Shown here one piece after another: positions 7,275 to 42,341 of a stretch of DNA of 43,602 nt; the first letter of the stretch is position 1, and each line of letters starts with the position of its first letter. Below the pieces are notes generated by a model that did not search any database, was not told the origin of the DNA, and saw only the letters and a list, made by a program, of their open reading frames with translations. The position numbers and the translations under genes were made by a program. This DNA is from a virus (Duplodnaviria > Heunggongvirae > Uroviricota > Caudoviricetes), in IMG/VR virus record IMGVR_UViG_2541047812_000007, positions 1 through 43,602 of that record, one strand, 5' to 3'.

Positions 7275-7970
7275 ATGACAGCTACAAAAAGCACGTCCAT
7301 TTTTTCTTTCGAATCCCAAGCCGATATACGGGTAATCGTCATTAATGGTGAGCCATGGTTTATCGCTTCAGATGTTTGTCGGGCTATAGGCATAGCAAAC
7401 CATCGAGATGCTGTTCGAAAACTTGATGATGATGAGAAGGGCGTCGCTTCAACCGACACCCCTGGCGGTGAGCAAGAATCGATCATCATCTCCGAGTCAG
7501 GCCTCTACACACTGATCCTCCGCTGCCGCGACGCAGTGACACCAGGCACTATCCCCTACCGCTTTCGTAAATGGGTTACAGGTGAGGTTCTTCCTCAGAT
7601 CCGCCGCACCGGAAGTTACATTAAAAACTCGCTCCCGCAGGAAGAACGCATAAAGATGGTTGCCGACCAGGTAGCCAGCGCCACAGCATCAGCAGTGATG
7701 CAGGCAATGAAGGTAGAGAACAAAACCTACAGCGCCCCGCTGAAGCCCGGCTACCGCAGCCTGATTCACTCGCCGTCTGGTGTTCTCGGCCTGACGGAGA
7801 ACTCACTGCTGATGAATCTGCTGAACCAGTTACAGGACGACGGGCACGACGTATCGGGCGCGGCGGCGGAGCTGACCACCATGTTCTGCTACATCGTCGG
7901 TGTGAGCAAATGCCTGCGTGATATCCAGACCCACGCGGAGTACATCAACGACAAGGCAGGGTTCTTCTGA
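7275..7970 (+). CDS. Antirepressor, Bro-N N-terminal domain plus shared antirepressor C-terminal domain
   Basis: N-terminus has the Bro-N pattern (IRVIVINGEPWFIASDVCRAIG); C-terminal ~80 aa nearly identical to the C-termini of 9088-10026 and 41668-42318. Confidence 0.8.
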   Translation: MTATKSTSIFSFESQADIRVIVINGEPWFIASDVCRAIGIANHRDAVRKLDDDEKGVASTDTPGGEQESIIISESGLYTLILRCRDAVTPGTIPYRFRKWVTGEVLPQIRRTGSYIKNSLPQEERIKMVADQVASATASAVMQAMKVENKTYSAPLKPGYRSLIHSPSGVLGLTENSLLMNLLNQLQDDGHDVSGAAAELTTMFCYIVGVSKCLRDIQTHAEYINDKAGFF

Positions 7971-7993
7971 CGGCGGCGGCACAGGGACGTGCC
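7729..7993 (+). repeat. Copy 1 of a ~260-bp near-identical repeat (antirepressor 3' end plus ~25 bp)
   Basis: Over 95% identical by eye to 42073-42341 (direct) and to 9064-9318 (inverted). Confidence 0.8.
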
Positions 7994-8040
7994 TTTAAAT
8001 AATTCTGTACGATTGCAGACTGGGGGTGAATAGCGTACTA

Positions 8041-8055
8041 TTACCCCAAAGGTAA
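8041..8055. promoter_or_regulatory. Palindromic operator-like site TTACCCCAAAGGTAA
   Basis: TTACC-N5-GGTAA inverted repeat about 120 bp upstream of the 8173 cassette. Confidence 0.4.
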
Positions 8056-8172
8056 GAAAGTTGATTTGTAACATTTTAGTTTGTAGTTACCGTGATGGTT
8101 TTGCTGCAGAAAGTTAACTAGTCAAAATCACACCGTATGTAAGTCACGTCTGTTCCCGTATGGGAGGATGAT

Positions 8173-8391
8173 ATGTTTAAATTTGATATGCAACTTAACC
8201 AAAACTATGCCTCTTTTTACCATCCAGAAACTGGTAAAGCTGTTTTCGTTGACTCTTTCGATAATGAAGAATTTGATATCAGAATTGGGACCCTACGCCA
8301 AAGTAAGCATGTTGCTACTGTACGTGCATCCAATGATGATGAATTAAATCAAAAAATAAGTGAGGCGACCTCCCGTTATCTATGTCTATAA
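8173..8391 (+). CDS. Hypothetical protein (72 aa), first gene of an AT-rich two-gene moron
   Basis: Strong SD GGGAGG 6 nt before ATG; low GC relative to surrounding phage DNA; no family recognised. Confidence 0.6.
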   Translation: MFKFDMQLNQNYASFYHPETGKAVFVDSFDNEEFDIRIGTLRQSKHVATVRASNDDELNQKISEATSRYLCL

Positions 8392-8759
8392 CAGAACAAC
8401 AACTCATTGATCTTGAGGATGAGATTAACGAGATCTTGCAAGAAGATGCGGCAAGAATTCACTTTTCATTTCACGCAGCATATGAACGCCTGAACGACGA
8501 GAGGAACAAACCGCCAATTACTCTTGCTGAGCTTGAAGATGTGTTTAAATCGTTTATATCTGCACATCTGCAGACTGTTTTGGATTTTGCTGAAGGTACA
8601 ACTTTCACCATAAAGTGCAACAAAAGCGCCCTTCATTTTCCTTGCGCCATTGTACACGAAAGAGAGTTTGGGAAAACGTGGGTTATCCAAAACGTCATTA
8701 CAGCCATGAGGAAAGTGGGATTCAAGTCTAAAGATTCTATTATCCTCGAAGTTAATTAA
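8382..8759 (+). CDS. Hypothetical protein (125 aa), second gene of the AT-rich moron
   Basis: Start overlaps upstream stop by 10 nt (translational coupling); followed directly by an intrinsic terminator; no family recognised. Confidence 0.6.
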   Translation: MSITEQQLIDLEDEINEILQEDAARIHFSFHAAYERLNDERNKPPITLAELEDVFKSFISAHLQTVLDFAEGTTFTIKCNKSALHFPCAIVHEREFGKTWVIQNVITAMRKVGFKSKDSIILEVN

Positions 8760-8780
8760 GCCCGCAGCGCGGGCTTTTTT
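8760..8780 (+). terminator. Rho-independent terminator
   Basis: GCCCGC-agc-GCGGGC followed by TTTTTT immediately after the stop at 8759. Confidence 0.65.
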
Positions 8781-8852
8781 GTGGACGAAACAAAAGTCAG
8801 TGCTACACTCATTGACGCCACATTGAGGTGGCTTATAGATGGAAATTTCACA

Positions 8853-9014
8853 ATGAAAAAAGCATTTGCTGCACTGTTCGTTTTGTTGTCTCTGGTAGCT
8901 TCAACTCAGGCCTTTGCCGGTCGTTGTCAGCACGACAGCGATACTGCCGCTGACGGCTCCCGCTGCGGTGGGCGTTCTGCGGATTCCCGCCCGGGTGGCG
9001 GTGGCATTCGTTAA
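8853..9014 (+). CDS. Small secreted peptide (53 aa), hypothetical
   Basis: Signal peptide MKKAFAALFVLLSLVASTQAFA; plausible promoter TTGACG-16-TATAGA upstream; weak SD. ORF-track start 8781 replaced by the internal ATG. Confidence 0.4.
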   Translation: MKKAFAALFVLLSLVASTQAFAGRCQHDSDTAADGSRCGGRSADSRPGGGGIR

Positions 9015-9036
9015 AAACAAGGCCGCGAAAGCGGCC
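9012..9036 (-). terminator. Terminator for the minus-strand antirepressor gene
   Basis: Hairpin GGCCGC-gaaa-GCGGCC (9021-9036); on the minus strand it is followed by a U-rich tract. Confidence 0.5.
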
Positions 9037-9063
9037 TGTGACATGTCACGCTAGTTTCGTTTT

Positions 9064-9318
9064 GCACGTCCCTGTGCCGCCGTTCTGTCAGAAGAACCCT
9101 GCCTTGTCGTTGATGTATTCCGCGTGCGTCTGGATATCACGCAGGCATTTGCTCACACCAACGATGTAGCAGAACATGGTGGTCAGCTCCGCCGCCGCGC
9201 CCGATACATCGTGCCCGTCTTCCTGTAACTGGTTCAGCAGATTCATCAGCAGTGAGTTCTCCGTCAGGCCGAGAACACCCGACGGCGAATGAATCAGACT
9301 GCGGTAGCCTGGCTTCAA
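9064..9318 (-). repeat. Copy 2 (inverted) of the ~260-bp antirepressor 3' repeat
   Basis: Reverse complement aligns with 7729-7993 and 42073-42341 with few substitutions. Confidence 0.8.
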
Positions 9319-10026
9319 TGGATAACCATAACATTTTGTCTGTGTTTTAATTGCCTCACGAAGCGCATCTAACATCTTGACTGCCACTTCATCATTCTCT
9401 GATGCAGATCCAGCAGGGAGATACTCCCCTTCAAGCGGAACCCGAGCAACAAGAGACAACGCTTCGGCAAATTGATCTTCACCAATTTCTTTGTACGAAC
9501 AGCCAAAATGAGATTTCAGTGACGACCACATGGTGATCATCGCCTTAGCCTGTTTTTCTTTTGGCAGAGACTGACCGCGACTCATGACGAGTTGTTTAAT
9601 GGCTTCCTGCTGTTCAGTTGTTATTTTACCCGGCAACGCCTTTTTAGCTTTGCGTGGGTTAACCACATGGCCTTTAGTCCAGTACTCGTAGAGCACATCG
9701 TCACACTCTTCCTGATACTGGATTACCTTGTCGCGGATTTCAGGGCGGACTTTGTTAGGGCTGATGCTGTTCAACCAAGCTGCCAATTTTCGTAAAGCCA
9801 TACAAATCATGGCTTGCACCCCACCGGCAGAAGGTATGGTGATTTCCACCATACCCTTCGAGAAGCGTTGAGAAATCTTCTTATGTTGAGATTTCCAGTC
9901 TAGCCCCATTCCCTCAACGATAGGTTTCATTGGGGTATACGGTTCGCCGTTGTGATTGACAACATAAAGCTCTGCGCCGTGGAATGGCACGTTGATAGTA
10001 GATACTGCTGTTGCTATACTCGTCAT
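9088..10026 (-). CDS. Antirepressor (ant-like), distinct N-terminal domain plus shared C-terminal domain
   Basis: 312 aa; SD AGGA before ATG; sits downstream of an Arc-like gene as in P22 immI; C-terminus shared with the other antirepressors. Confidence 0.8.
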   Translation of the reverse strand: MTSIATAVSTINVPFHGAELYVVNHNGEPYTPMKPIVEGMGLDWKSQHKKISQRFSKGMVEITIPSAGGVQAMICMALRKLAAWLNSISPNKVRPEIRDKVIQYQEECDDVLYEYWTKGHVVNPRKAKKALPGKITTEQQEAIKQLVMSRGQSLPKEKQAKAMITMWSSLKSHFGCSYKEIGEDQFAEALSLVARVPLEGEYLPAGSASENDEVAVKMLDALREAIKTQTKCYGYPLKPGYRSLIHSPSGVLGLTENSLLMNLLNQLQEDGHDVSGAAAELTTMFCYIVGVSKCLRDIQTHAEYINDKAGFF

Positions 10027-10098
10027 GTCGTTAATTCCTATACGTAGTTTTACGATACTGAAGCCCTGACGGTCTGGCCACCGTGGGGCTTCGCTGTT

Positions 10099-10266
10099 TT
10101 ATGCCACGCTATTCTTCTCACCAGTGAGTCCATACACTTTCCTCAGCTGATAGATAATCTCTGTATTGAACTTTCGGCATTCTTTTTCGCCATTTCTTTC
10201 AATAGCTAACTTCACATCGTCCGGAAAACGAACTCGTCGTTGACACATCTCTTTTGCTTTTTGCAT
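10099..10266 (-). CDS. Arc-like ribbon-helix-helix repressor
   Basis: 55 aa from internal ATG with SD AAGGAG 7 nt upstream; resembles P22 Arc (RFPDDVKLAIERNG...NTEIIYQLRK). Confidence 0.6.
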   Translation of the reverse strand: MQKAKEMCQRRVRFPDDVKLAIERNGEKECRKFNTEIIYQLRKVYGLTGEKNSVA

Positions 10267-10280
10267 TTCATATCTCCTTA

Positions 10281-10295
10281 GCCCCACCGTGGGGC
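10281..10295. promoter_or_regulatory. Palindrome GCCCCACCGTGGGGC upstream of the arc-like gene
   Basis: Inverted repeat next to the arc SD; core CCACCGTGG recurs at 10078-10086 and 29359-29367. Confidence 0.35.
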
Positions 10296-10386
10296 AAAAT
10301 AATTGTCACACCGTGCGTCATTGATGTCAAGCACACGGTGAGGCATACTTCAATCATTGCAAGTAACTCAATATTTGGTGAAGAAC

Positions 10387-10818
10387 ATGAGCAGAGAAGA
10401 TCCACAACTAAGGATCAGACTTCCCGTCGAAGTAAAAGAAAAAATAGAAATTTCTGCAAAAGCCAATAAGCGATCAATGAACGCTGAAATAGTACAACGT
10501 CTTGACACCAGCTTTCTGAAAGATATTCATGAAGATGACGTAATTTCTGCTTATGAAGCAAAAATCATTGCAAACAATGCACGACATGAAATATCAAATA
10601 TTATTTTCAAAAGAACCTTTAATGAAATTAATAAGAAAATAACACTTGGACATACAAGTTTTTATATAAACCTTAATGACCTTGAACTGGAATCACTTGC
10701 AGATAATGATTACCAGATCATCTTTGAAAAAACATTTAATAGGCTCAATGAACTAGGTTACATCATCTGTGAAAACTCATGGGATGCAGATGGTTTTGGA
10801 ATTGAAATACCTGAATAG
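10387..10818 (+). CDS. Mnt-like ribbon-helix-helix regulator with a ~95-aa C-terminal extension
   Basis: N-terminus resembles P22 Mnt/Arc (LRIRLPVEVKEKIEISAKANKRSMNAEIVQRL); divergent from arc/ant; AT-rich C-terminal domain of unknown family. Confidence 0.6.
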   Translation: MSREDPQLRIRLPVEVKEKIEISAKANKRSMNAEIVQRLDTSFLKDIHEDDVISAYEAKIIANNARHEISNIIFKRTFNEINKKITLGHTSFYINLNDLELESLADNDYQIIFEKTFNRLNELGYIICENSWDADGFGIEIPE

Positions 10819-10831
10819 GAAGAACAAAAGG

Positions 10832-10848
10832 CGTGTACATATTACACG
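10832..10848. promoter_or_regulatory. Perfect palindrome CGTGTA-CATAT-TACACG
   Basis: 17-bp inverted repeat between the mnt-like gene and the membrane protein gene. Confidence 0.3.
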
Positions 10849-10908
10849 TCTTTAATACAATTGAAAAACGCCACATTACTGATGTATGTTACAACAAGGA
10901 GCGATATT

Positions 10909-11472
10909 TTGAAAACCATATCTATATTAAAGGTTGCATTAGGCGTCGCTATTATTTTGACTCTCTCAATATTGTTTTATTTTTACCACAAACAAACTGC
11001 TATTGCTCTTGATAGTCACGCGGCAAACTCATTTTTCTCAGAGTACATAGTGCCGCTATCAGGAAGCGGTATAACAAATAAATATACTGACTATGACATC
11101 AAATATGGAATTGATGATGGGGAGACTATTGTATTACATGTAATCATTAAAAACCTAATGACAGTAAATAAAAATACAGACTTCAACGATAAAAATACAA
11201 TACATCACAACAACAGCAAAACATTAATTTCTTATAGTAGCAACATCTATACGGATAAATACCTAAAATACATATCAGAAGATACAATAAAAGAAACCCG
11301 CGAAAAGTTAAAAAACATATATTGTGCATCCGGCAGTTTTCACAAATTATCGCCGCAAGAGCGTTTATTCTACGAAGCAAGAAAACAACGTAAGTCAATA
11401 ATATTACATTATTATGCTGATTCAGGGGAGACACTCATATTTAATATTGGGGTTTCCCCTGAATCATGCTAA
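10909..11472 (+). CDS. AT-rich membrane-anchored protein, candidate superinfection-exclusion moron
   Basis: TTG start 7 nt after strong SD AAGGAG (ORF-track start 10861 also TTG); N-terminal TM helix; roughly 33% GC; occupies the position of sieA in P22-type maps. Confidence 0.55.
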   Translation: MKTISILKVALGVAIILTLSILFYFYHKQTAIALDSHAANSFFSEYIVPLSGSGITNKYTDYDIKYGIDDGETIVLHVIIKNLMTVNKNTDFNDKNTIHHNNSKTLISYSSNIYTDKYLKYISEDTIKETREKLKNIYCASGSFHKLSPQERLFYEARKQRKSIILHYYADSGETLIFNIGVSPESC

Positions 11473-11483
11473 AGGTGTTTAAC

Positions 11484-14400
11484 TCACCGCATCACCGGAT
11501 CCACTTGGTTTATTAGTGGCGCAATCCAGAACAGGTTATTGCCGGGTATCAGGGTTCGGACATTATGCACAATACGATCACCGGCATCACCATTCAACAC
11601 TCCTGAGGTCACATCAATGATGCTATCCGCAAGACCAAATGACGGTCCGAATAGAGATCCTACGAATCCACGACTGGCATACCTGGACTGTGTGCCAGTG
11701 CCAAATAAAGCCCCCAGCCCAACAGCACCACCAGTCGCCTTTTCAGCCATGTTGTTATATTCCATCAATGGCCCAAGAATACCGGATCTATCTATACCCT
11801 CAAGCACCAGCTTCTCTGGTGACCAGTCAACATTTTTCCCTTTCGATGCTTCTTTAAGCGCATAGACCAGTGAGCCAAGAGCAATCTGAAATGCAGTGCC
11901 ATAATAAAATTGCGCAGTTCCTTCCTGTAACCCACCAAGTAGCGCACGGTTGTATGAAGCCGTTGTGAATGATTTAAACTGAAATATCGTTCGCCCCATT
12001 GGAGTACTCGCCCATAAAGGTGTGTCACCAATACCGGGGGTGATGATAGTGTTATTAACGTCTTTCAGAACCGCTGACTGGAATACTCCGGCAACGTACT
12101 GATCGTCCCATTTATCAAAGTTACCAATGTGCCATCCATCAATTACCTCACCATGTTTCTCGAACTCACTGCGAATACGCGCAGCCATATTGTCGTTGAT
12201 ACCGAGTTTTGCCATGCGACGTGCAGAAAACGCACCAGACAAAATACCGTCTGACGTGAGCATTCCGTTCATGGATTTGTTTATGTCATTAAATCGATCC
12301 ATGAGTGTCAGCTTGCCGAAGGCATCAGTAATTCGCTCCATTCCTGCTTCGACTGCTGTTGTCCTGGAAGAACTGTCAACAAGATCACCAATTGCACGAG
12401 AACGTGAATGTAGTACAGTTTCCAATCCAATCCCCATCTTCAACATCTCTTCTTTGCTGGCCTTAAATGCCGGTGATTGGGATATCTGAGAAGCATAGCC
12501 TTTCATGGAGTTACGGAAACCATTAACCATAACCCCTCTGGCCAGATCTGGAATAGCTGATACTGTCATTCCACCGAGTTTGGTCGTGAAGTTCACATCC
12601 CGCAGAAAAGCGCCAGCACGAACAAAAAACGAAGACGGGTCATCAGGCATACCATATGTACCAACAAGACGATCGCGTAATGCTGTTATGTCTCTGAGAT
12701 CATTTGCTCTTGATTTTGAAAGTCTGGACTGTTCTTTCCGTAATTCCTTTTCGTACTTTCGCATTAATGAATCGAGTTTACCCTGAGGAACAACTTCACC
12801 ATTGCTCTCATAACGTGCTTTCAGATTTGCCACACTTTCGTCATATTTCGCCTTTATTTTTTCAGGCACTTCCCGTAACAGACTGTCATATTCGTCCTCA
12901 ATTAATTGCAGACGCTCTGTCATAGTTCGTTTGCCAAATGTTCTCGTCAACTCAATTTCTGCTGCCGCTTCACGGATATGACGTTGTAGAACGTAATTCA
13001 CATCACTTTCGAGATAATCCCTGATAAGACTATCAGGCACATTTAATGTTCTTTCTTTCGTACTACCTGCGGCTTTTACAGAAAATACGCTGACAAAATC
13101 CTGTGGAACCTTAGCACCAGTAATTTTATTAATTACGATATCCGCTGCAATTTCAGCATCCTCAGGATCCAGTGTTTTATTGCCTCTCGACCACCAGTCA
13201 ACCAAAATACGTCGAAATTTATCGCGTTCACTGATTATTTTTCCAACTTTATATATACGTGGGAAATAGCTTGCCTGGCCTAATGCTTTCAGTTCTTCAT
13301 CTGGCGGCAATAAACCAAGCTTTTGCATTTCAACCTTCACCCGATTTAATACAGTTCGCATCGCCTGCGCCGTTTCCTGAACAACAGGATTAGCATGCAC
13401 ATCACCGCTTCGCATAGCATTCCCAACCTGCTGACGAAATGAATCAAAACTCATGTCACCACCATCAGCTTTATACTTTGCGTATGCCTGTTTATTTCCG
13501 ACAACAACAGCAGCTTCTTCACGCTGCCATCCACGTGTACGGGTTTCTACAGCTACCGGTGTTTCAATCCCCCTTTCATTTCCTTTAAGGGTGAAATTAT
13601 TTTCGGCTAACTCCAGCGTTGTTTTTCGCACTGTCTTGGACGGAGACTCCATTAACCTTGTCAAAGGAGTAAGATAGCTCCCTGCTTTCCATGCAGCCTT
13701 TCCAACCACCCCACCGGAAACAGGGGTTAAATCATCCAGAGTCGCTGTATCAATTTTCATAGCACCAACACTACCACCATCAGAAAGCGAAGCGGCAGCC
13801 CTGTCAGTCGCTGATGTAATGCTCATATTATCAAGAGCATCAGCAACCTCACGCGTGGCTGCAGCCCGGACGGATGGCGAAAGCGCAACACCAGCACTGG
13901 CAAACACGCCGCTCATCATCGCACCCGCTGCAATGTGAGCGGCACTTTCACCCCATGAGCGTGTTATTTGCTGATTATTCAGCACAACCTCGCTTAATGC
14001 TGTACCGGCTGCACCAATCGCAATCTGTGAGCCAATACGCGCCAGTGCCCCTCCTTGAGCACCGGGGATAAACATTGACGCAACAGTAACCGGATCCATT
14101 CCCGCAGCAATACTGGCAAGGGTTCCAACTACGCCAGCATCAGACAATAAACGTCTGTCTTCATTTTCATCATCTATCTGCTGCTTAATCCACGCCGTTT
14201 CCTCTGGCGATCGGGAATCTGCAAATTTCGCCCCCCAGTATTCATAACCGTGCAACTCATTTTTATCAGCATATGGGTTATAACCTTCGACCGGTTCAAA
14301 CTGTCTGGCTGGTCGGAAAAAACCAGCCAGAATATTGTTCTGTCGCATTGCAGCCCCCCATACGGAAGGCTCCGGTGGCAATGGCTCAGGATTAGCCCCT

Positions 14401-14498
14401 TCCGGAAGGGCAACATCAAACCCAGTTTGTTCCGGCAAAACATTACCTGACGGGATCAGTCCGTTATTAAGATCTTCAGCTTGTGCATAAACTGGCAT
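11484..14498 (-). CDS. Large internal virion/ejection protein (1004 aa)
   Basis: Long ORF in the virion operon downstream of the transglycosylase protein; size and position like podovirus internal core proteins. Confidence 0.65.
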   Translation of the reverse strand: MPVYAQAEDLNNGLIPSGNVLPEQTGFDVALPEGANPEPLPPEPSVWGAAMRQNNILAGFFRPARQFEPVEGYNPYADKNELHGYEYWGAKFADSRSPEETAWIKQQIDDENEDRRLLSDAGVVGTLASIAAGMDPVTVASMFIPGAQGGALARIGSQIAIGAAGTALSEVVLNNQQITRSWGESAAHIAAGAMMSGVFASAGVALSPSVRAAATREVADALDNMSITSATDRAAASLSDGGSVGAMKIDTATLDDLTPVSGGVVGKAAWKAGSYLTPLTRLMESPSKTVRKTTLELAENNFTLKGNERGIETPVAVETRTRGWQREEAAVVVGNKQAYAKYKADGGDMSFDSFRQQVGNAMRSGDVHANPVVQETAQAMRTVLNRVKVEMQKLGLLPPDEELKALGQASYFPRIYKVGKIISERDKFRRILVDWWSRGNKTLDPEDAEIAADIVINKITGAKVPQDFVSVFSVKAAGSTKERTLNVPDSLIRDYLESDVNYVLQRHIREAAAEIELTRTFGKRTMTERLQLIEDEYDSLLREVPEKIKAKYDESVANLKARYESNGEVVPQGKLDSLMRKYEKELRKEQSRLSKSRANDLRDITALRDRLVGTYGMPDDPSSFFVRAGAFLRDVNFTTKLGGMTVSAIPDLARGVMVNGFRNSMKGYASQISQSPAFKASKEEMLKMGIGLETVLHSRSRAIGDLVDSSSRTTAVEAGMERITDAFGKLTLMDRFNDINKSMNGMLTSDGILSGAFSARRMAKLGINDNMAARIRSEFEKHGEVIDGWHIGNFDKWDDQYVAGVFQSAVLKDVNNTIITPGIGDTPLWASTPMGRTIFQFKSFTTASYNRALLGGLQEGTAQFYYGTAFQIALGSLVYALKEASKGKNVDWSPEKLVLEGIDRSGILGPLMEYNNMAEKATGGAVGLGALFGTGTQSRYASRGFVGSLFGPSFGLADSIIDVTSGVLNGDAGDRIVHNVRTLIPGNNLFWIAPLINQVDPVMR

Positions 14499-26541: not shown

Positions 26542-26618
26542 GTGGCATTAGCTCAGTTGGACAGAGCAACCGCCTTCTAAGCGGTTGGTCGCAGGTTCGA
26601 ATCCTGCATGCCACGCCA
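26542..26618 (+). tRNA. tRNA-Arg, anticodon UCU (reads AGA)
   Basis: 77-nt cloverleaf folded by hand: acceptor GTGGCAT/ATGCCAC, D-arm GCTC/GAGC, anticodon stem ACCGC/GCGGT with loop CTTCTAA, T-arm GCAGG-TTCGAAT-CCTGC, discriminator G, encoded CCA. Confidence 0.9.
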
Positions 26619-33392: not shown

Positions 33393-33395
33393 GAT

Positions 33396-35088: not shown

Positions 35089-35281
35089 AGGTTTCCCCTC
35101 TTGCACTCTTTAGTGCACAAGCAAATTCATTACGATGGCGGTTGGCGCTATTCATTGCACATTCAACACATGTTCCGTTCAGAACATACCTTTCAGAGAG
35201 ATGGCCGTGACGGCACCGCTTTCCTGTGAAATAGCGATTTAACCCGGCTTTTGCGGCCTCCATTCTGGTTACTATCTTCAA
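35069..35281 (-). CDS. Small zinc-ribbon-like protein (70 aa)
   Basis: Cys/His cluster CRHGH...CVEC; lies between the cro-like gene and the O-like gene. Confidence 0.45.
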   Translation of the reverse strand: MKIVTRMEAAKAGLNRYFTGKRCRHGHLSERYVLNGTCVECAMNSANRHRNEFACALKSARGETYGKQLD

Positions 35282-35358
35282 TTTTTCCGCCCCTTTTTGT
35301 TATTGATATTGGCTATTTTGCACAATTGGAAAATTTGATCAACCAGATTTGGTTTTTT

Positions 35359-35373
35359 ATTACCTTTGAGGTA
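35359..35373. promoter_or_regulatory. Operator-like site TTACCTTTGAGGTAC
   Basis: 14/15 match to TTACC-N5-GGTAA. Confidence 0.35.
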
Positions 35374-35429
35374 CGAATAGATATGAAAAGACCGCCGGGT
35401 GGCGGTCTACAGAGGGTTGTAGCTGGATA

Positions 35430-35660
35430 TCATGAGTAGAAGAAGTATGCCAGTTCTGCTTTTGAGCGCAGCCATTGTCTTGTTTTACAGGCTTTAAAAA
35501 GCCCATTCATCAATACCTTACCTGGCATTTTGCGCTTGCCTGTTAAGTGAGTCTGGATATAGTGACTCGTCGTTCCGGCTTCCTGTGCGAAGGCTTCACG
35601 CTCATCCGGAGTAAGTGCAAGCCAGTGCTTTTTGAAATCGAAATGTCCGTTATCGCTCAT
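35430..35660 (-). CDS. Cro-like small HTH regulator
   Basis: 76 aa, divergent from the repressor gene across the operator cluster. Confidence 0.55.
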   Translation of the reverse strand: MSDNGHFDFKKHWLALTPDEREAFAQEAGTTSHYIQTHLTGKRKMPGKVLMNGLFKACKTRQWLRSKAELAYFFYS

Positions 35661-35695
35661 AGCTATTGCCTGATATTTATTTCAGATAATAAATA

Positions 35696-35759
35696 TTCAC
35701 CCATAAGGTAACAAAAATCAAGGATGGTTACCTATGAGGTGCATTTACCTGTTGGGTAA
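35696..35759. promoter_or_regulatory. Tripartite operator cluster in the divergent cro/repressor intergenic region
   Basis: TCACCCATAAGGTAA (35696-35710), TTACCTATGAGGTGC (35728-35742), TTACCTGTTGGGTAA (35745-35759). Confidence 0.5.
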
Positions 35760-35814
35760 TATTGCTTTAAATTGAATCATCTACTGATTCATATATGAGG
35801 CGATTTTCCAGAAA

Positions 35815-36399
35815 ATGAAAAGTATCCAGGACGTCCGCAGGCAAAATCTCAACGACTTGATCGACCGTGAATTCAATGGTGTTCAGACGCGGATGGCAGA
35901 AAAACTTGGAACTCAGGCAAATCTGGTAAACCGCTGGGCTCTTGGCAAGAAGGTTATCGGCGACCAGGTTGCGCGAAAAATTGAAGCTGCCGCCAATAAA
36001 CCCCGTAACTGGCTTGATATCGATCGCTCGCTTTCTCAGGAAGGTTTTCAGCCTGTCGGCCCAAGCGACATTGGTCAGCTGGCGGCTCACAACCTGGAAC
36101 GCTGGATGAGCGAAAGCCGCGACCTTTCAACACAGGGAAAACTTCACCGCGCATCCGGCGTCGCCCAGGTGACAATCAGCCGCCTGTTAAACAATGAGGT
36201 CAGCGTTTCCATTTCCACCCTGGAGAATGTTGCATCCGCATTCGGGCGTCACGGATATGAACTACTGATTCACCCGCACGACCCTGCGACTATCAACTAT
36301 GACCGCTCACGCTACGCATTGTTACCCGAAACCGAGAAAGCAAAGATCGAAAGTTACATTGAATTTGTCATCAACCAGAACGAAAAAAGCAAACAATAA
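35815..36399 (+). CDS. Prophage repressor with two HTH motifs and no peptidase domain
   Basis: 194 aa; two XRE-type HTH segments; no S24-like autocleavage motifs seen in the C-terminal part. Confidence 0.7.
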   Translation: MKSIQDVRRQNLNDLIDREFNGVQTRMAEKLGTQANLVNRWALGKKVIGDQVARKIEAAANKPRNWLDIDRSLSQEGFQPVGPSDIGQLAAHNLERWMSESRDLSTQGKLHRASGVAQVTISRLLNNEVSVSISTLENVASAFGRHGYELLIHPHDPATINYDRSRYALLPETEKAKIESYIEFVINQNEKSKQ

Positions 36400-36419
36400 A
36401 ACTATATTTTTCAGTAAGT

Positions 36420-36446
36420 AAGCCGCCTCATGGCGGCTTTTTTATT
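36420..36446 (+). terminator. Rho-independent terminator after the repressor gene
   Basis: AAGCCGCC-tcat-GGCGGCTT followed by TTTTTATT. Confidence 0.7.
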
Positions 36447-36456
36447 GCCATCAAGA

Positions 36457-36533
36457 TTACCTTATGGGTAATTTTTTTAACTCATATCTATTGACATCAA
36501 ACCAAATACGCATAATCATTACCTCAACGGTAA
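36457..36533 (+). promoter_or_regulatory. Early promoter region with two operator-like palindromes (PL-like)
   Basis: TTACCTTATGGGTAA (36457-36471), TTGACA at 36491-36496, CATAAT near 36511, TTACCTCAACGGTAA (36519-36533). Confidence 0.45.
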
Positions 36534-36552
36534 CAAGCCGAGGTAACAAGTT

Positions 36553-36702
36553 ATGCAGTGGAAAATCATCAACGGTTGGTACTGCGTTACTGCATGCGGA
36601 TTCATGAGCTGGAAGTTCCGCACCTTACAGGAAGGCATCAAGTGGGCTTTCGTCAGCAAAGAAGCTCGCGATGTGGCAAACGATAACGAGATATGGGAGT
36701 AG
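36553..36702 (+). CDS. Small protein (49 aa), first gene of the rightward early operon
   Basis: ATG downstream of the promoter/operator region; ends 8 nt before the next gene; below the ORF-track cutoff. Confidence 0.35.
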   Translation: MQWKIINGWYCVTACGFMSWKFRTLQEGIKWAFVSKEARDVANDNEIWE

Positions 36703-36710
36703 GTTAGCAA

Positions 36711-37745
36711 ATGAGTGAATTATCAATCATCGAAATCACACCAGACATGGCACCAAGAATTTACGTTGAAAAAGGGCTGGAAAAGTTTCTCGAGCAGATC
36801 CGTGAAGGTGTTAATGAAGTGCCTGACATTAGCACAGACAAAGGCAGAAAGCGCATTGCATCTCTGGCTGCGAAGGTTTCAAGAAGTAAAACAGCGGTAG
36901 AAAAACCAGGACGTGATTATCTGAAACGCCTGAAAGAACAGCCGAAAGTAGTTGAAGCAGAGTTACGACGCTTCGTAACCGAATGCGATCGGCTTCGTGA
37001 TGAAGTACGCCGCCCACTCACCGAGTGGGAAAATGCTGAGAAATTACGCACTGAAGCACTGCAACAACGCCTGACAAATTTGCGAGCACTAGCTGACGTG
37101 ATCGATCTCTCCGGAAACTACTTGCCATCATCTGATATTCAGGAACGAATTCAAGAGGCTAAATCAGTAGCACTTGATGAAAGTTGGCAGGAGTACGCAG
37201 CAGAAGCTGGAGTAGCCAAGGATTCAACCATCAAGAAACTGGAAGAATCACTCGCAGTAGCTCAAAAACGCGAGCATGAAGCCGCTGAGCTGGAGCGACT
37301 TCGCAAAGAAGCGGAGGAAAAAGCGCGCATTGAGCGAGAAGAGAATATCCGACGGGAAGCTGCTGAACAGGCCAGGCTCGAAGCTGAACAAAAAGCGAAA
37401 GCTGAAATTGAGGCTGCGGCACGCCTGGCGGCGGAAGAAAAAGCACGTGCTGAAGTAGCAGAACGTCAGCGAATTGAAGCAGAGCAGCGTGCACGACGCG
37501 AAAAAGAAGAAGCCGTTGCCGAGGAACGCCGACGCCAAGAGGCGGCAGAAAAAGCCCGCCTTGACGAACAGAAGCGTATCGCCGACGAAGAAGCGCGCCG
37601 AGCTGCAGATAAAGAGCATCGCCGTACCGTTAACCGCAGAGTAATCGCAGATCTGATAGCCCAAGGCATTCACGAAGAATTCGCGCAGAAAGCAATGTTG
37701 GCTATCGCTGGCGGCAAAGTGCAGGACGCGTATATCAAATATTGA
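36711..37745 (+). CDS. Hypothetical coiled-coil protein with E/A/R/K-rich repeats
   Basis: 344 aa; long charged segment; upstream of the exonuclease/RecT pair. Confidence 0.6.
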   Translation: MSELSIIEITPDMAPRIYVEKGLEKFLEQIREGVNEVPDISTDKGRKRIASLAAKVSRSKTAVEKPGRDYLKRLKEQPKVVEAELRRFVTECDRLRDEVRRPLTEWENAEKLRTEALQQRLTNLRALADVIDLSGNYLPSSDIQERIQEAKSVALDESWQEYAAEAGVAKDSTIKKLEESLAVAQKREHEAAELERLRKEAEEKARIEREENIRREAAEQARLEAEQKAKAEIEAAARLAAEEKARAEVAERQRIEAEQRARREKEEAVAEERRRQEAAEKARLDEQKRIADEEARRAADKEHRRTVNRRVIADLIAQGIHEEFAQKAMLAIAGGKVQDAYIKY

Positions 37746-37752
37746 GGTGGGT

Positions 37753-38052
37753 ATGAACGTTAATCAGCAGAAAAATCTTCAAAAAATCATGCTGGCATTC
37801 GACAAGGACTACCGCCTGTCAGAACAGCTATATGACCGACAAGTTGAACTGATCGATAGCATCCGGCTTCATCAACTGGCCTCAACTTTTGACGCTGTAA
37901 CAGGCAAAGGAGTTCGCCAGGAAGTACTGGAGGCTGCTAAAGACAGCCCTGAGTTCGAAGAACTGATGGATGCCTACCGGCGAGAGGCAATGGCAATTAT
38001 CGCCCGCTGGGATCTGGCGGATCGGATTGATGGGCAGAGGGAAGCGGCATGA
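37753..38052 (+). CDS. Hypothetical protein (99 aa)
   Basis: ATG after SD GAGGTGG; ATGA overlap with the exonuclease gene. Confidence 0.5.
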   Translation: MNVNQQKNLQKIMLAFDKDYRLSEQLYDRQVELIDSIRLHQLASTFDAVTGKGVRQEVLEAAKDSPEFEELMDAYRREAMAIIARWDLADRIDGQREAA

Positions 38053-38870
38053 AACCGGGAATTTATTTCGACATCAGCAATGAGGACTACCACGCCGGTG
38101 ACGGCGTGAGTAAGTCGCAACTGGACATGGTTGCCAAGAATCCGGCGCTTCTTAAATGGGTTCAGGCAGCACCAGAAGACGAAGAGAAAAAGTCTGCACT
38201 GGATATGGGAACCGCATTGCACTGCCTGCTTCTGGAGCCTGGAGAGTTCGACAAACGCTTCATTGTTTCACCGAAATTCGATCGTCGGACGAAACAAGGT
38301 AAAGCTGACGAAGAAGCATTTCTTCGTGATGTAGCGGATATGGGGATTACGGTACTTGATGCCGAGCAGTGGCGGAAACTGGAGCTGATGCGTGATAGCG
38401 CAATGGCTCACCCGGCGGCACGCTGGATGCTGGAAGCACCTGGTTACTGCGAAGCATCAATGTACTGGAATGATGAAGAGACTGGTGAGTTGTGCCGCAT
38501 TCGTCCAGACAAATGGCTGAACGAGCACAACGTGATCGTCGACGTGAAAAAGGTTGCAGATATGGACCGTTTTGCACGCCACATCGAGGAATTCCGCTAC
38601 CACGTGCAGGACGCAATGTACCGCGAAGGCGCAATGAGGGTTACTGGTCAGCCGCATGGTTTTTTCTTTCTTGCCGTGAGCGAAAGCATTGATTGTGGTC
38701 GGTATCCGGTACGCGTGTTCGAGCTGGATGCGCCGGATGTCGATGCCGGGCACGCTCTGTTCCGCCGGGATCTGAATACCTATCACGAATGCCGCATCAA
38801 CGATGAGTGGGGCGGAGTGGAAATTATTAAACGCCCTGACTGGGCACGTAAACAGGATATGTACGTATGA
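38049..38870 (+). CDS. PD-(D/E)XK recombination exonuclease (RecE-like)
   Basis: Pattern MKPGIYFDISNEDYH...ALHCLLLEPGEF...DVKK typical of phage PDDEXK exonucleases paired with RecT. Confidence 0.75.
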   Translation: MKPGIYFDISNEDYHAGDGVSKSQLDMVAKNPALLKWVQAAPEDEEKKSALDMGTALHCLLLEPGEFDKRFIVSPKFDRRTKQGKADEEAFLRDVADMGITVLDAEQWRKLELMRDSAMAHPAARWMLEAPGYCEASMYWNDEETGELCRIRPDKWLNEHNVIVDVKKVADMDRFARHIEEFRYHVQDAMYREGAMRVTGQPHGFFFLAVSESIDCGRYPVRVFELDAPDVDAGHALFRRDLNTYHECRINDEWGGVEIIKRPDWARKQDMYV

Positions 38871-39748
38871 GCAATGATATCGCAATCACATCACAACCAG
38901 GCGCAACTGTAGGTACTGCTGCGGCAATCTTCAGCCCGGAGGGCATGAATCAACTGGTGCGTTTCGCGGAGTTGATGTCACAAAGCAAAGCGACTGTACC
39001 GAAACATCTTGAAGGCAAACCTGCCGATTGTCTGGCGGTGACCATGCAGGCGGCACAGTGGGGAATGAACCCTTTCGCCGTGGCGCAGAAAACGCATGTG
39101 GTAAACGGAACGTTAGGCTACGAAGCACAGTTGGTAAACGCGGTCGTATCCTCTTCCAGCCTGCTAGCGACACGCCTGAATTATCGCTGGAGCGGTGACT
39201 GGTCGAATGTTAACGGCAAAACAGATAAATCACCGAATCTGACGGTAACTGTGTCAGCAGTTCTTAAAGGAGAAGCAGAACCCCGTGAGCTTACCATCAG
39301 TATGGCGCAAGCCGGAGTGCGTAACTCTCCATTGTGGGAACAGGATCCGCGCCAGCAGCTTGCCTATCTTTGCACGAAACGATGGGCTCGCCTGCACGCT
39401 CCTGATGTGCTTCTCGGTGTTTACACCCCTGACGAATTACAGGAAACGGCACCGCGCGTTGAGCGAGACATTACTCCGCAAACGACTACTGCTGCGGGAA
39501 TGAACAGTCTGATCAACGCTAAACCAGTGAAAAAGCATGATGAGCAAACGCGTAAAGCGGATAGCCGTGATCCAGAAGAAATGCTGATGGCCTTTACCAG
39601 CGCAGCGATGAATTACAGCACTGTCTCCGAACTGGATAAGGCTTACAAATACATTGCACAAAAACTTTCAGATGATGACGAACTGCTGGCAAAAGCCACC
39701 GACGTTTACAGCGTTCGTCGGGAAGAATTAAACGAAACATCTATGTAA
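38867..39748 (+). CDS. recT: RecT-family single-strand annealing protein
   Basis: RecT-like blocks (MNPFAVAQKTHVVNG, YEAQLVNAVV); coupled to the exonuclease gene. Confidence 0.8.
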   Translation: MSNDIAITSQPGATVGTAAAIFSPEGMNQLVRFAELMSQSKATVPKHLEGKPADCLAVTMQAAQWGMNPFAVAQKTHVVNGTLGYEAQLVNAVVSSSSLLATRLNYRWSGDWSNVNGKTDKSPNLTVTVSAVLKGEAEPRELTISMAQAGVRNSPLWEQDPRQQLAYLCTKRWARLHAPDVLLGVYTPDELQETAPRVERDITPQTTTAAGMNSLINAKPVKKHDEQTRKADSRDPEEMLMAFTSAAMNYSTVSELDKAYKYIAQKLSDDDELLAKATDVYSVRREELNETSM

Positions 39749-39797
39749 CCACCACCGCGGCGCCACACGCGCCGCACTGCAACCAAGAGAGGTATTT

Positions 39798-40046
39798 ATG
39801 AAAGGTGCATTAGGTAAGAAGGAACTCCTGGCGGTGGTGCCACTGTCATGGAGCACTATCGACCGTATGGAGCGCGCAGGGGAATTTCCTAAACGCTGGT
39901 ATATCACTGACAAACGCTGCGCATGGAACCGTGACGAAGTTGAGCGTTGGCTTGATGAACGTCAGGCAGCAAGCCCGGCAGAGTTCCAGGGTAAAAAACC
40001 TCCTGTTCAGCAACGTGTATATCGTCCCGTGAGCAACGCTGCATGA
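39798..40046 (+). CDS. AlpA-family HTH protein (regulator or excisionase-like)
   Basis: 82 aa with AlpA-like pattern GEFPK...W...EVERWL. Confidence 0.65.
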   Translation: MKGALGKKELLAVVPLSWSTIDRMERAGEFPKRWYITDKRCAWNRDEVERWLDERQAASPAEFQGKKPPVQQRVYRPVSNAA

Positions 40047-40155
40047 GTGCGCTGCTAAGGCACTGGATCAAATGGTCAGGATGGTACTTATTCCTGGCCT
40101 CTGTTTCAGCATGGCTTTATCTGCTGGCATTAATTTTCAGAGAGGGTTGGATTAA

Positions 40156-40455
40156 GTGAGAAAGTTAAGCCGACTTGAAAAATATCACATGAATAAGGTT
40201 TCAATGCGCAGTCCGTCAAAGATTGTCGCCGTTACTCCTGCGGCGATAGAGATCGAAAAACGCGCGATTGAAAGAGAGAAAAAAGGGCAGTTCCGCATTG
40301 CCGCTCACCTTTGGCTTCAGTGTATGGATGTTGCTTCTGGTGATGTTGAGCGTGCAAGGATCGCGGTTCGCAGGGACCAATGTATCACAAAAGGTAACGG
40401 CCTTCGCCGTGGAGACTATAGCGGTATAGGATGTTGCGGGGTGGTTTATGACTAA
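40156..40455 (+). CDS. Hypothetical protein, possibly PerC-like regulator
   Basis: GTG start after SD GAGGG; segment GQFRIAAHLWLQCMDV resembles the PerC-family core; weak assignment. Confidence 0.4.
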   Translation: MRKLSRLEKYHMNKVSMRSPSKIVAVTPAAIEIEKRAIEREKKGQFRIAAHLWLQCMDVASGDVERARIAVRRDQCITKGNGLRRGDYSGIGCCGVVYD

Positions 40456-41098
40456 GAAATACACACTAATCTATGCAGATCCACCCTGGGTATACCGGGA
40501 CAAAGCCGCAGATGGTAATCGCGGTGCCGGTTTTAAATATCCGGTTATGAGTGTGATGGATATCTGCCGCCTTCCTGTGTGGGATTTGGCCGATGAAAAC
40601 TGTCTGTTGGCCATGTGGTGGGTGCCAACACAACCACTCGAAGCACTAAAAGTTGTTGAAGCCTGGGGGTTCCGTCTGATGACCATGAAGGGCTTCACGT
40701 GGATAAAATGTGGTAGTCGACAACCAGATAAACTGGTTATGGGTATGGGACACATGACTCGCGCCAATAGTGAAGATTGCCTGTTTGCAGTTAAGGGAAA
40801 ACTACCTCCGCGCATTAATGCAGGGATCGTTCAGTCATTTACCGCACCGCGGCTTGAGCATTCAAGAAAACCAGATGTCGTTCGTGAAAAACTTGTGCAA
40901 TTGTTAGGCGATGTTTCTCGCATTGAACTGTTCGCCCGCCAGACGTCTCATGGCTTCGATGTTTGGGGTAATCAGTGCGAAGACCCGGCAGTGCAACTAC
41001 ACCCCGGATACGCGTTGGATATTGGCGGATTAACAAATGCATTCAGCAATGCTCCGCTGTCACCAACAGACAACCAGGGACGGGAGCGTGCAGCATGA
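40448..41098 (+). CDS. MT-A70 family N6-adenine DNA methyltransferase
   Basis: Catalytic DPPW motif in IYADPPWVY; typical size. Confidence 0.85.
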   Translation: MTKKYTLIYADPPWVYRDKAADGNRGAGFKYPVMSVMDICRLPVWDLADENCLLAMWWVPTQPLEALKVVEAWGFRLMTMKGFTWIKCGSRQPDKLVMGMGHMTRANSEDCLFAVKGKLPPRINAGIVQSFTAPRLEHSRKPDVVREKLVQLLGDVSRIELFARQTSHGFDVWGNQCEDPAVQLHPGYALDIGGLTNAFSNAPLSPTDNQGRERAA

Positions 41099-41343
41099 AG
41101 CAGATTATGGTTGCACACAACGGCGTCAGGTTTGAAGTCGTCATGGTTTTGACTAAGTTCCACAATGATGAGGTATTGCACAGAAAAGAAACTGTAACTT
41201 ACCGTTATAAACACCGCAGTTCAGCTGTTAGAAAATTACGGAAGATTGCGGAAGAACTAAAAAATGATCCTCATCGTGTTATTGAGGTAAAAGGCAACCC
41301 ATATAAAATCAAAACTTCAGTGGAGCTAAGACATATGCAATAA
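41095..41343 (+). CDS. Hypothetical protein (82 aa)
   Basis: ATG overlapping the methyltransferase stop (ATGA). Confidence 0.5.
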   Translation: MKQIMVAHNGVRFEVVMVLTKFHNDEVLHRKETVTYRYKHRSSAVRKLRKIAEELKNDPHRVIEVKGNPYKIKTSVELRHMQ

Positions 41344-41667
41344 AATCACGCCTGACGAATCGCGATTATCTCGCTATTGGTATTGCAGAGATTGCTGGAC
41401 TCAATGGCGCATGATTTGACAATGCCGCCAGAGCTATCGCATACTGACCGCACTAGAAAACAAACAGCGGTCATCCGCACCCGATAGCTTTGCGGCTTTT
41501 TTATGCCTGCAATCTGGCATAGTCACATCCGTACAAAGGTCGGGTGGAGAGGCGTAATACAACACCCGAAAGGGGAATATGCCCGGAGCTACTGTTTGTG
41601 CTCTAGTTGACACCCGATCACCAGCTACTAACTGGTTTTCGTAACTAAAAACAAACAGGAGGTCATC

Positions 41668-42318
41668 ATGACCAGTCAACTCATCCCCGTATTCAACGGC
41701 ACTATATCCAACGAAACCGCTCTTCTCGTTAATGCCCGTGATTTACACACTTTCCTCGATGTGGGTAAGCGATTTGCTTCGTGGATTGTCGAACGAATTG
41801 CTGAATATGGTTTCGTTGAAAATCAAGACTTTATGATTATTTCCCAAGTTCGGGAAAAAATAGGCAGAGGCCGTCCTGCAAAAGACTACCACCTCACCCT
41901 CGATACAGCCAAAGAGCTGGCGATGGTCGAGCGTAATGAAAAAGGTCGTCAGGTACGACGCTACTTCATTGAATGCGAGAAACGTTTAAGACAACAAGAA
42001 ACAAAAGTGGAGAAGGTCTTGTCAGGCTTCATGCCCGCCATTATGGAGGCGATCAAGCTGGAAGACAAAAAAGAATACAGTGCCCCACTGAAGCCCGGCT
42101 ACCGCAGCCTGATTCACTCGCCGTCTGGTGTTCTCGGCCTGACGGAGCGCTCACTGCTGATGAATCTGCTGAACCAGTTACAGGACGACGGGCACGACGT
42201 ATCGGGCGCGGCGGCGGAGCTGACCACCATGTTCTGCTACATCGTCGGTGTGAGCAAATGCCTGCGTGATATCCAGACTCACGCGGAGTACATCAACGAC
42301 AAGGCAGGGTTCTTCTGA
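41668..42318 (+). CDS. Antirepressor, AntA-like N-terminal domain plus shared C-terminal domain
   Basis: Strong SD AGGAGG; N-terminal pattern DLHTFLDVGKRFASWIVERIAEYGFVENQDF; C-terminal ~80 aa shared with 7275-7970 and 9088-10026. Confidence 0.8.
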   Translation: MTSQLIPVFNGTISNETALLVNARDLHTFLDVGKRFASWIVERIAEYGFVENQDFMIISQVREKIGRGRPAKDYHLTLDTAKELAMVERNEKGRQVRRYFIECEKRLRQQETKVEKVLSGFMPAIMEAIKLEDKKEYSAPLKPGYRSLIHSPSGVLGLTERSLLMNLLNQLQDDGHDVSGAAAELTTMFCYIVGVSKCLRDIQTHAEYINDKAGFF

Positions 42319-42341
42319 CAGAACGGCGGCACAGGGATGTG
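42073..42341 (+). repeat. Copy 3 of the ~260-bp antirepressor 3' repeat
   Basis: Differs from copy 1 at only a few positions. Confidence 0.8.

Follow-up and report, generated by a model that had tools for sequence, protein, structure and literature searches.

The stretch analysed here, hereafter the window, is a viral DNA of 43,602 nucleotides (nt; IMG/VR record IMGVR_UViG_2541047812_000007, positions 1 to 43,602) in which three genes with different antirepressor-type N-terminal domains end in one nearly identical C-terminal module, and a fourth, small gene encodes a diverged copy of that module on its own. By its sequence matches the window is a phiV10/epsilon15-like Escherichia coli prophage; it matches the phiV10/epsilon15-like podophages, with TL-2011b and HEMP4 closest. 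It encodes Rep, an SPC32H-type prophage repressor (35815-36399, + strand; PDB 5D50_A, E=3.5e-42), which on sequence grounds is the presumed target of all four Ant-type domains. We consider it rather probable that these loci represent one Ant-type effector, matched to Rep and placed in four separately gated genes, and that the module, not the N-terminus, sets the target. Rather than a kind of its own, the arrangement is a variant on antirepressor systems of the immI type that are already known.

In the proposed mechanism, Rep would hold lysogeny, and the Ant fold would act as in SPC32H, where this small helical domain assembles into a tetramer that binds dimers of Rep and takes apart the Rep tetramer held on DNA. 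The stand-alone, LexA-controlled Ant would bring about SOS induction, and the three modular antirepressors would each join an N-domain widespread among the antirepressors of other phages to a nearly invariant Ant-type C-terminal module, the latter matching each fusion to the phage's repressor. In the lysogen, each fusion would be silenced by its own immI-type controller: the Bro-N gene by a P1/P7-style isrK/C4 RNA masking its ribosome-binding site, the P22_AR_N gene by an mnt/arc/sar set like that of P22, and the AntA gene by an sRNA-Xcc1-type RNA that is apparently C4-like. Several signals would in this way probably converge on one repressor. Regulators, N-termini and the inter-gene cassette would be shuffled by recombination, with the conserved module as one crossover site, and a phage whose antirepressor is unmatched by the RNA or Mnt specificity of the resident could inactivate the shared Rep.

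The shared module and the Ant fold

The initial annotation had proposed three different N-terminal domains on one C-terminal domain, and Pfam bears out the three N-terminal domains. The Bro-N-Ant fusion (231 amino acids, aa; 7275-7970, + strand) carries Bro-N at residues 17-107 (E=2.5e-21) and the module at about residues 136-231, the P22_AR_N-Ant fusion (312 aa; 9088-10026, - strand) matches PF10547 (E=5.9e-45), and the AntA-Ant fusion (216 aa; 41668-42318, + strand), beside the integrase gene, matches AntA (E=8.3e-28); all three share a 3' repeat of 95-99% identity. No Pfam match was obtained in the C-terminal module of the fused proteins, which belongs to PHROG 450, 'unknown function'. The C-terminal module of the Bro-N protein nevertheless aligns without gaps over 77 aa with PDB 5D50_E (E=1.9e-13), and the profile of the module family matches 5D50_E alone (E=8.5e-34). 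An AlphaFold2 (AF2) model of the last 96 residues of the Bro-N protein (136-231) has a predicted local distance difference test score (pLDDT) of 84.5 and matches only 5D50_G/E in the PDB, with a probability of 1.00, a template modelling (TM) score of 0.78-0.79 (target-normalised) and a root-mean-square deviation of 1.6-2.1 Å. Sequence and model together identify the shared module as a homolog of SPC32H Ant. Ant is reported in the 2016 PNAS abstract on SPC32H to contact the C-terminal domains of Rep. It has 86 residues, along the full length of which the fused module is homologous, and PMC9638917 describes it as forming a tetramer and binding Rep dimers. Given that the whole of Ant is both repressor-contact and oligomerisation unit, the module would therefore be such a unit by homology, as the initial annotation had guessed of the shared domain, and a matching Rep is encoded in the window; the fused modules are accordingly predicted, from sequence, to bind Rep.

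The small stand-alone Ant (85 aa; 6702-6959, + strand; PHROG 450) is an ortholog of SPC32H Ant, to which it is 88% identical. Its match to PDB 5D50_E (E=2.7e-46) covers residues 43-125 of a 126-aa open reading frame (ORF) at 6579-6959, and the start is most likely the ATG at 6702 rather than 6579. A near-consensus LexA (SOS) box, TACTGTATAAATATACAGTT (6663-6682, + strand), lies 5' of the gene and is the sole CTGT-N8-ACAG with an AT-only spacer in a scan of the whole window. The small Ant is 42% identical to the fused module over 74 aa (E=2e-15), so that the LexA-controlled gene does encode a diverged copy of the module alone, as first suggested. The same scan found no LexA palindrome within 100 nt 5' of the starts of the three fused genes, and LexA control of these genes was rejected for lack of such a box.

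The Rep-Ant antirepression switch of SPC32H (PDB 5D50/5D4Z) was reportedly worked out by Kim and Ryu in 2013 and by Kim et al. in 2016. The window resembles it in belonging to the same phage group, in its Rep homolog, in a LexA-boxed small ant gene at the same position beside the tailspike gene, and in the Ant fold of its fused module at approximately 40% sequence identity. However, SPC32H has a stand-alone Ant only, in one place, whereas the window adds three larger proteins ending in the fold, their module has an extra N-terminal helix (~15 aa), and the fusions are under non-SOS control. Domain shuffling among BRO, KilA-N, Rha, AntA and ORF6N phage regulators is said to have been described by Iyer, Koonin and Aravind in 2002. 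The window's fusions share with such modular regulators the placing of interchangeable N-domains on interchangeable C-domains, but their C-domain lies outside the catalogued KilA-C/ANT, P22_AR_C and ORF6C and has no Pfam model.

The best case for target choice by the C-terminal domain is made by phage CUS-3. Residues 1-202 of the copy-2 protein, as we call the P22_AR_N-Ant fusion after its repeat copy, are 97% identical to CUS-3 Ant (95% in DNA), and the two proteins part completely at VPLEGE, where the window continues into the Ant module and CUS-3 into P22_AR_C (residues 207-279). The Pfam search found PF10548 (P22_AR_C) absent from the 9088-10026 protein, which holds the Ant module from residue ~203 instead. 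CUS-3 is a P22-like phage (Lederbergvirus) that is absent from the set of records in which a Rep homolog or an Ant-family sequence was found, and P22-like phages use C2/CI-type repressors. With one and the same N-terminal two-thirds joined to P22_AR_C in a P22-like phage and to the Ant fold in a Rep-type phage, it is the C-terminal domain that, on this evidence, seems to pick the repressor, which gives a testable answer to the question of which part of a modular antirepressor does so. The finding also offers a structure-backed function for a domain that has no Pfam entry and is 'unknown' in PHROGs, and whose carriers at present bear no label beyond 'BRO-N domain-containing' or 'phage antirepressor N-terminal domain-containing'.

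An alternative is that the module is a tetramerisation handle only and that the N-domains are effectors acting on other targets, for instance DNA or the repressors of lambdoid or P22-like prophages in the same cell. The tetrameric state of SPC32H Ant given in PMC9638917 would suit such a handle, as would the near-identity of the N-domains in phages with unrelated repressors (97% in CUS-3, and many matches in Stx phages at 80-90%) and the DNA binding reported for the Bro-N family in work cited in PMC7313666. We nonetheless regard this alternative as quite unlikely, since the C-terminus follows repressor type in the P22-like relative with the same N-terminal two-thirds, and since the module is confined to Rep-encoding phages: Ant-family sequence occurs in 32 of 50,697 phage records, all of them epsilon15-like, with a Rep homolog in 32/32, and the module family comprises 61 clusters (50% identity) among 1.84 billion representative proteins. 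Module and Rep moreover diverge in step across genera, at 79% and 78% identity in Tyrion and 54% and 45% in Klebsiella phage Kp4865-1. This parallel divergence of Bro-N-Ant and Rep indicates that the fusion is old. The fused form is found in the E. coli, Enterobacter and Klebsiella phages of the group and not in Salmonella epsilon15/SPC32H, HEMP4 is the sole phage record with a gene at the AntA-Ant site, and an exhaustive search of representative proteins combined with Pfam identified ORF6N and Phage_pRha as further N-domains fused to the module. Bro-N-Ant proteins are common across Enterobacteriaceae, where their annotation rests on Bro-N alone.

Two side observations concern the Ant sequences themselves. 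The small Ant is 88% identical between E. coli and the Salmonella SPC32H phage (L026), though the window's Rep and SPC32H Rep share just 43% identity, whereas the small Ant of a Klebsiella phage is 58% identical although its Rep has diverged to a similar degree. This would follow either from an exchange of the ant-tailspike region between phage lineages of E. coli and Salmonella or from Ant recognising a Rep surface that is conserved. In addition, protein P0014 (84 aa) is small-Ant-like in its first half (QQYHHPLEDGFTERIHTP...) and fused-module-like in its second (DGHDVSGAAAELTTM...), a natural chimera whose sequence indicates recombination within the domain between the two paralog types.

Probable separate control of the three fused genes

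Not noticed in the initial annotation is that every one of the large genes comes with a negative controller of its own, and these regulators move the reading of the genes away from paralogs homogenised by conversion and towards one effector delivered through separate gates. The leader of the Bro-N-Ant gene is headed by a promoter-like site, TTGAAA-17-TATATT (6963-6991, + strand), from a consensus scan only. Downstream lies an isrK-type element (7042-7117, + strand; Rfam RF01394, 77.9 bits, gathering 50) that contains two targets, a1 (7067-7073, + strand) and b1 (7083-7090, + strand), and ends in an intrinsic terminator identified by a terminator scan (7098-7117, + strand); a c4-a1b1 match at 7029-7081 scores 45.1 bits, slightly below its 46.7 threshold. 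Both targets are complementary to the loops of a C4-type antisense RNA (7142-7227, + strand; RF01695, 77.7 bits, gathering 45), namely b' (CCTTTTAG, 7185-7192, + strand) and a' (ACGCCAA, 7199-7205, + strand), which are also exactly complementary to a second pair of targets, a2 (7231-7237, + strand) and b2 (7259-7266, + strand). Target b2 covers the Bro-N-Ant Shine-Dalgarno, 8 nt 5' of the ATG at 7275. The leader (6983-7275) travels with Bro-N genes in other loci, and 19 related leaders hold at least six C4 loop combinations, in each of which both target copies change to match.

In P1/P7, ant is known to be under C4 control (Citron & Schuster 1990, cited in PMC7313666), isrK and C4 are found 5' of Bro-N genes in APSE phages (PMC7313666), and isrK of Gifsy-1 gates translation of an antirepressor-like gene (PMC4825925). 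The window shares with P1/P7 and the Gifsy-1 isrK-orf45-anrP arrangement the order of isrK/a1b1 and terminator, followed by C4 pairing with a2/b2 at the ribosome-binding site, and C4 loop specificities vary between its relatives as they do between P1 and P7. It differs in the overlap of b2 with the antirepressor's own Shine-Dalgarno and in the Ant module at the C-terminus of the regulated protein; moreover, no icd-/orf45-like leader ORF was evident, albeit without a systematic search, and the gap between C4 and the ATG at 7275 is just 47 nt.

The P22_AR_N-Ant gene is preceded by a gene for an Arc-like small repressor (10099-10287, - strand; PHROG 228), annotated 'Arc-like repressor' in TL-2011b. 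Opposite the arc-ant junction lies a sar-type antisense RNA (10028-10095, + strand; Rfam RF00262, 44.8 bits, gathering 43), a match that recurs at the same place in nine related loci, and a Mnt-like regulator with an Arc-family N-terminus is encoded divergently from arc-ant (10357-10818, + strand; PHROG 1388/3178/228), its relatives being named 'Arc family DNA-binding protein' in RefSeq. With the arc-like and Mnt-like genes and sar, copy 2 has a full immI set of the P22 type. Likeness to P22 immI thus extends to the P22_AR_N gene, the arc-like gene, the sar-type RNA and the divergent Mnt-like regulator, but the window has an Ant module in place of P22_AR_C, its presumed target is Rep rather than a C2/CI-type repressor, and its Mnt-like protein, at ~143-153 aa, is longer than P22 Mnt.

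The leader of the AntA-Ant gene is likewise headed by a promoter-like site (41416-41445, + strand), which is followed by a first target, ACAAACAG (41460-41467, + strand), the T-tract of a terminator-like hairpin (~41498-41503, + strand) and an sRNA-Xcc1-type RNA (41538-41627, + strand; Rfam RF02221, 64.8 bits, gathering 53). The hairpin loop of this RNA, CTGTTTGT (41592-41599, + strand), is complementary to ACAAACAG, of which a second copy (41651-41658, + strand) directly abuts the AntA-Ant Shine-Dalgarno GGAGG (whole element 41651-41663). When the window was compared with four other genomes (L027, L028, L029 and L023), the latter had the loop CTTTGAAG and CTTCAAAG at both targets in an otherwise nearly identical leader. 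Because loop and both targets switch together, layout and covariation carry the same signature as in C4, which suggests that the sRNA-Xcc1-type family in prophages may act like a C4 antisense RNA and provides a functional hypothesis for these RNAs. The C4 and Xcc1-type RNAs are both predicted, by the positions of their targets, to repress translation of their antirepressor genes. An sRNA-Xcc1 match is also present in HEMP4, and in APSE phages sRNA-Xcc1 lies 5' of an ORF6N gene (PMC7313666). The Xanthomonas sRNA-Xcc1 differs in being integron-borne, trans-acting and HrpG/HrpX-controlled, whereas the window's RNA lies in a prophage leader where its loop pairs with duplicated targets in a cis-context. 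The same AntA-Ant coding alleles are found behind a C4-type leader (position 1) and behind an Xcc1-type leader (beside int).

Gated antirepressors of this kind, with many RNA specificities over a single Rep allele, would fit a role in anti-immunity and cross-induction among co-infecting relatives, which by analogy we consider likely. In the Gifsy/Fels prophages, trans-acting antirepressors, not repressor cleavage, drive induction and can work across prophages with sensitive repressors in common (Lemire et al. 2011, PMC3121763). The antirepressors there are unrelated small LexA-controlled proteins, whereas cross-action in the present case is suggested by how nearly identical Rep is among E. coli prophages. 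With such an arrangement, a widespread family of E. coli prophages, K1- and O157-associated phages included, may be inducible or bypassable via several independent inputs, a point that bears on both prophage cross-induction and superinfection immunity.

The fusions could instead antagonise induction, by forming inactive mixed oligomers with the small Ant or by occupying Rep without dislodging it, and so buffer the prophage against accidental SOS induction. The homology of module and small Ant makes co-assembly possible in principle, and the normal role of such tightly repressed fusions is not obvious; specific hetero-oligomers are, however, uncertain at 38-42% identity, and in P1/P7 and P22 it is genuine antirepressors that C4, sar and mnt/arc gate. 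More directly, phage vB_EcoP_ZX5, the Rep of which is 99.5% identical to the window's, encodes an 'anti-repressor', ORF4, that carries Bro-N and the module (98.8%), and overexpression of ORF4, for which its authors named only the Bro-N domain, lowered lysogens from 1e9 to 1e6 and reduced repressor transcription (PMC9782041). This 1000-fold loss of lysogens is as expected of an antirepressor, and we consider a buffering function very improbable.

Several points nonetheless weigh against an effector module delivered by separately gated genes. The ZX5 experiment overexpressed the whole of ORF4, with the domains not separated, and were the N-terminal domains dispensable, stand-alone modules should dominate. 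The fused module is only 38-42% identical to the stand-alone Ant, and in a full-length AF2 model its pLDDT drops to 55-70, the Bro-N domain being good. On the regulatory side, the score of the sar match barely clears its threshold (44.8 vs 43 bits), we found no published antisense role of the C4 kind for sRNA-Xcc1, and the anti-immunity scenario draws on analogy with P1/P7 and P22.

Selection and conversion among the repeat copies

The three 3' ends form repeat copy 1 (7737-7993, + strand; 231 coding nt, the stop codon and ~23 nt past it), copy 2 (9065-9321, - strand) and copy 3 (42085-42341, + strand), which were the sole repeats in a search of the whole window. That search returned a direct pair, 7712-7971 and 42060-42319, at 96% identity, and two inverted pairs, 9065-9321 with 42085-42341 at 95% and 7702-7971 with 9087-9356 at 90%. 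With the copies anchored on their stop codons, pairwise identity over the last 231 coding nt is 98.7% for copies 1 and 3 (3 mismatches), 96.1% for copies 1 and 2 (9 mismatches), and 95.2% for copies 2 and 3 (11 mismatches). The near-identical core of ~255 nt extends ~22-25 nt 3' of the stop, where a common motif, C(A/G)G..CGGCGGCACAGGGA(C/T)GTG, is followed by divergence and copy 1 has a 2-nt indel relative to the other copies. At the 5' side, DNA identity falls off sharply beyond position -231, and protein likeness extends ~15 residues further. The initial annotation's figure of over 95% identity, including ~25 bp past the stop, therefore stands, as does its geometry, with copies 1 and 2 facing each other around a 1071-bp AT-rich segment (7994-9064) and copy 3 repeating copy 1 in direct orientation at a distance of 34,348 bp. 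Chance cannot have produced a repeat of such length and identity.

From this identity, recent gene conversion or cassette exchange had been concluded. The identity is, however, not special to this genome. When 5426 complete E. coli genomes were searched, the 256-nt repeat turned up in 469 of them, at 582 places, with at most three per genome and nearly all at 95-99%, and in the 11 loci that have copies 1 and 2 the mean within-genome distance (8.8/234 differences) equals that between genomes (7.8-9.7). Only 8 of the 38 variable codons alter the protein, and the ratio of nonsynonymous to synonymous polymorphism (pN/pS) of the module is 0.035, at a population mean pS of 0.14. Purifying selection across the population, and not necessarily recent conversion in the window, accounts for the high identity of the nucleotide sequences. 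The module would be held constant by selection because its target is constant: Rep is 99-100% identical among all E. coli phiV10-like phages, is present in 557 E. coli genomes, and has at least 95% nt identity in 540/560 records.

The competing explanation, that recent conversion within the genome homogenises the module rather than selection on a common target, draws on real footprints. Copies 1 and 3 of the window differ at only 3-4 sites and have a pS of 0.036, below the population mean, and of the window pairs only this one looks recently related. Among the relatives, private variants are common to both copies in L011 (a two-base TG variant), L010 and L005, the two copies in L010 differ at just 2 sites, and the post-stop motif co-varies within four genomes (L001, L005, L009 and L010). 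Yet copy 2 lies 11-12/231 coding sites from copies 1 and 3 (likewise 11 and 12 of 234 with the stop codon), at a pS of 0.16-0.18, above the mean, and is identical to copy 2 of L003, and copy 1 is only 2 nt from copy 1 of L006; the copies are therefore more like their positional counterparts elsewhere than each other. Together with the equal within- and between-genome distances and the few altered codons, this makes conversion an unlikely principal cause, and selection on a common target remains our preferred explanation. Of the original proposal, conversion is thus retained for the footprints in relatives and perhaps for copies 1 and 3, and cassette exchange is well supported, as described below.

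Cassettes, rearrangements and related loci

The segment between copies 1 and 2 (7994-9064, + strand) is a variable cassette region with a guanine-cytosine (GC) content of 37-42%, compared with 56-61% in stretches spanning the modules. It contains genes of 72 aa (8173-8391, + strand) and 125 aa (8382-8759, + strand), a terminator after this two-gene cassette (8758-8776), and, beside copy 2, a gene for a small signal-peptide protein of 53 aa (8853-9014) that is conserved in related loci. PHROGs 14630, 14518 and 3117 in the segment are of unknown function, and 14503 is a moron-category membrane-associated protein. The contents differ in nearly every locus compared (L001, L003, L005-L012), where YafO toxin, DUF2335, DUF4760 and unknowns are found, and it is this diversity that supports cassette exchange; between the two convergent antirepressor genes lies a hot spot of small, AT-rich accessory cassettes. 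No complete E. coli genome contained the two-gene cassette of the window at ≥80% coverage. The possibility of a known defence system was examined for ten cassette proteins from seven loci and discarded, with no PADLOC match.

Inversion of 7994-9063 and deletion between copies 1 and 3 had been anticipated from the repeat geometry. We searched the 5426 E. coli genomes at ≥80% coverage with a synthetic inversion junction (Bro-N gene, module and reversed transmembrane, or TM, gene) and matched 11, of which 6 were inspected; simple inversion was found in none of these six and was rejected, as all have another architecture, five being of a two-Bro-N type and the sixth an inversion of that type. A junction query for the 34-kb deletion between the direct copies matched 0 of 552 genomes at ≥80%, and this candidate was likewise rejected.

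In the five two-Bro-N prophages (L013, L014, L022, L030 and L031), the second position holds another C4-gated Bro-N-Ant gene of different C4 specificity, alongside a truncated P22_AR_N remnant in opposite orientation with varying truncation points. Past module-by-module inversion would explain this architecture. The sixth, E. coli CUVET21-H2 (L032, NZ_CP115343.1, ~3003-6109), has its 3.1-kb two-Bro-N unit inverted with respect to the five other prophages (compared: L014, L013 and L030), in the order leader-BroN-module, cassette, small TM gene, module-BroN-leader, and is a natural inversion between ~1-kb inverted antirepressor arms.

A broader proposal is offered more tentatively, as a serious possibility at somewhat under even chances. 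The phiV10-like prophages, in ~10% of complete E. coli genomes, may have essentially one Rep allele, with immunity groups set not by repressor-operator specificity but by RNA-RNA specificities (at least six C4 and two Xcc1, plus Mnt/sar) that gate up to three cassettes of one Ant module. The sRNA-Xcc1 family would then be a second class of C4-like gatekeepers, and the module a recombination handle for swapping or inverting regulators, N-domains and moron cassettes.

Further forms of the module were noted in related genomes. In phiV10 itself (L002, NC_007804.2, 3367-4046), the Bro-N-Ant gene is split by a frameshift in the module and annotated as p23 and p22, so that a functional fused antirepressor is probably missing there. 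Stand-alone forms of 95-97 aa raised the idea that the module is translated independently from an internal ATG, which was set aside because the case examined, P0002 (97 aa, 42 member sequences), has another origin: in L004 (E. coli GCA_013059185.1, 5354-6294) it overlaps the end of an MT-A70 methylase gene beside int, and looks like a deletion of the AntA N-terminal half and leader that joined the methylase gene to the module. In Klebsiella/Raoultella contigs (L015-L020), the gene at 10001-10288 encodes a 95-aa stand-alone protein related to the module at 60-66% identity and lies at the edge of small integrated elements with AlpA, Ash, primase (DUF927/Toprim), SSB and Bro-N genes. These elements resemble P4-like or satellite elements, and the Ant-type protein of a satellite could serve to induce a Rep-type helper prophage.

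The prophage has a K1 endosialidase tailspike gene (3387-6506, - strand), and its integrase gene (42352-43602, - strand) lies at the right end; guaA adjoins prophages of the same kind in relatives. A tRNA gene (26542-26615, + strand; Rfam, 73.3 bits) is located inside the prophage, and HEMP4 has a tRNA at the equivalent place.

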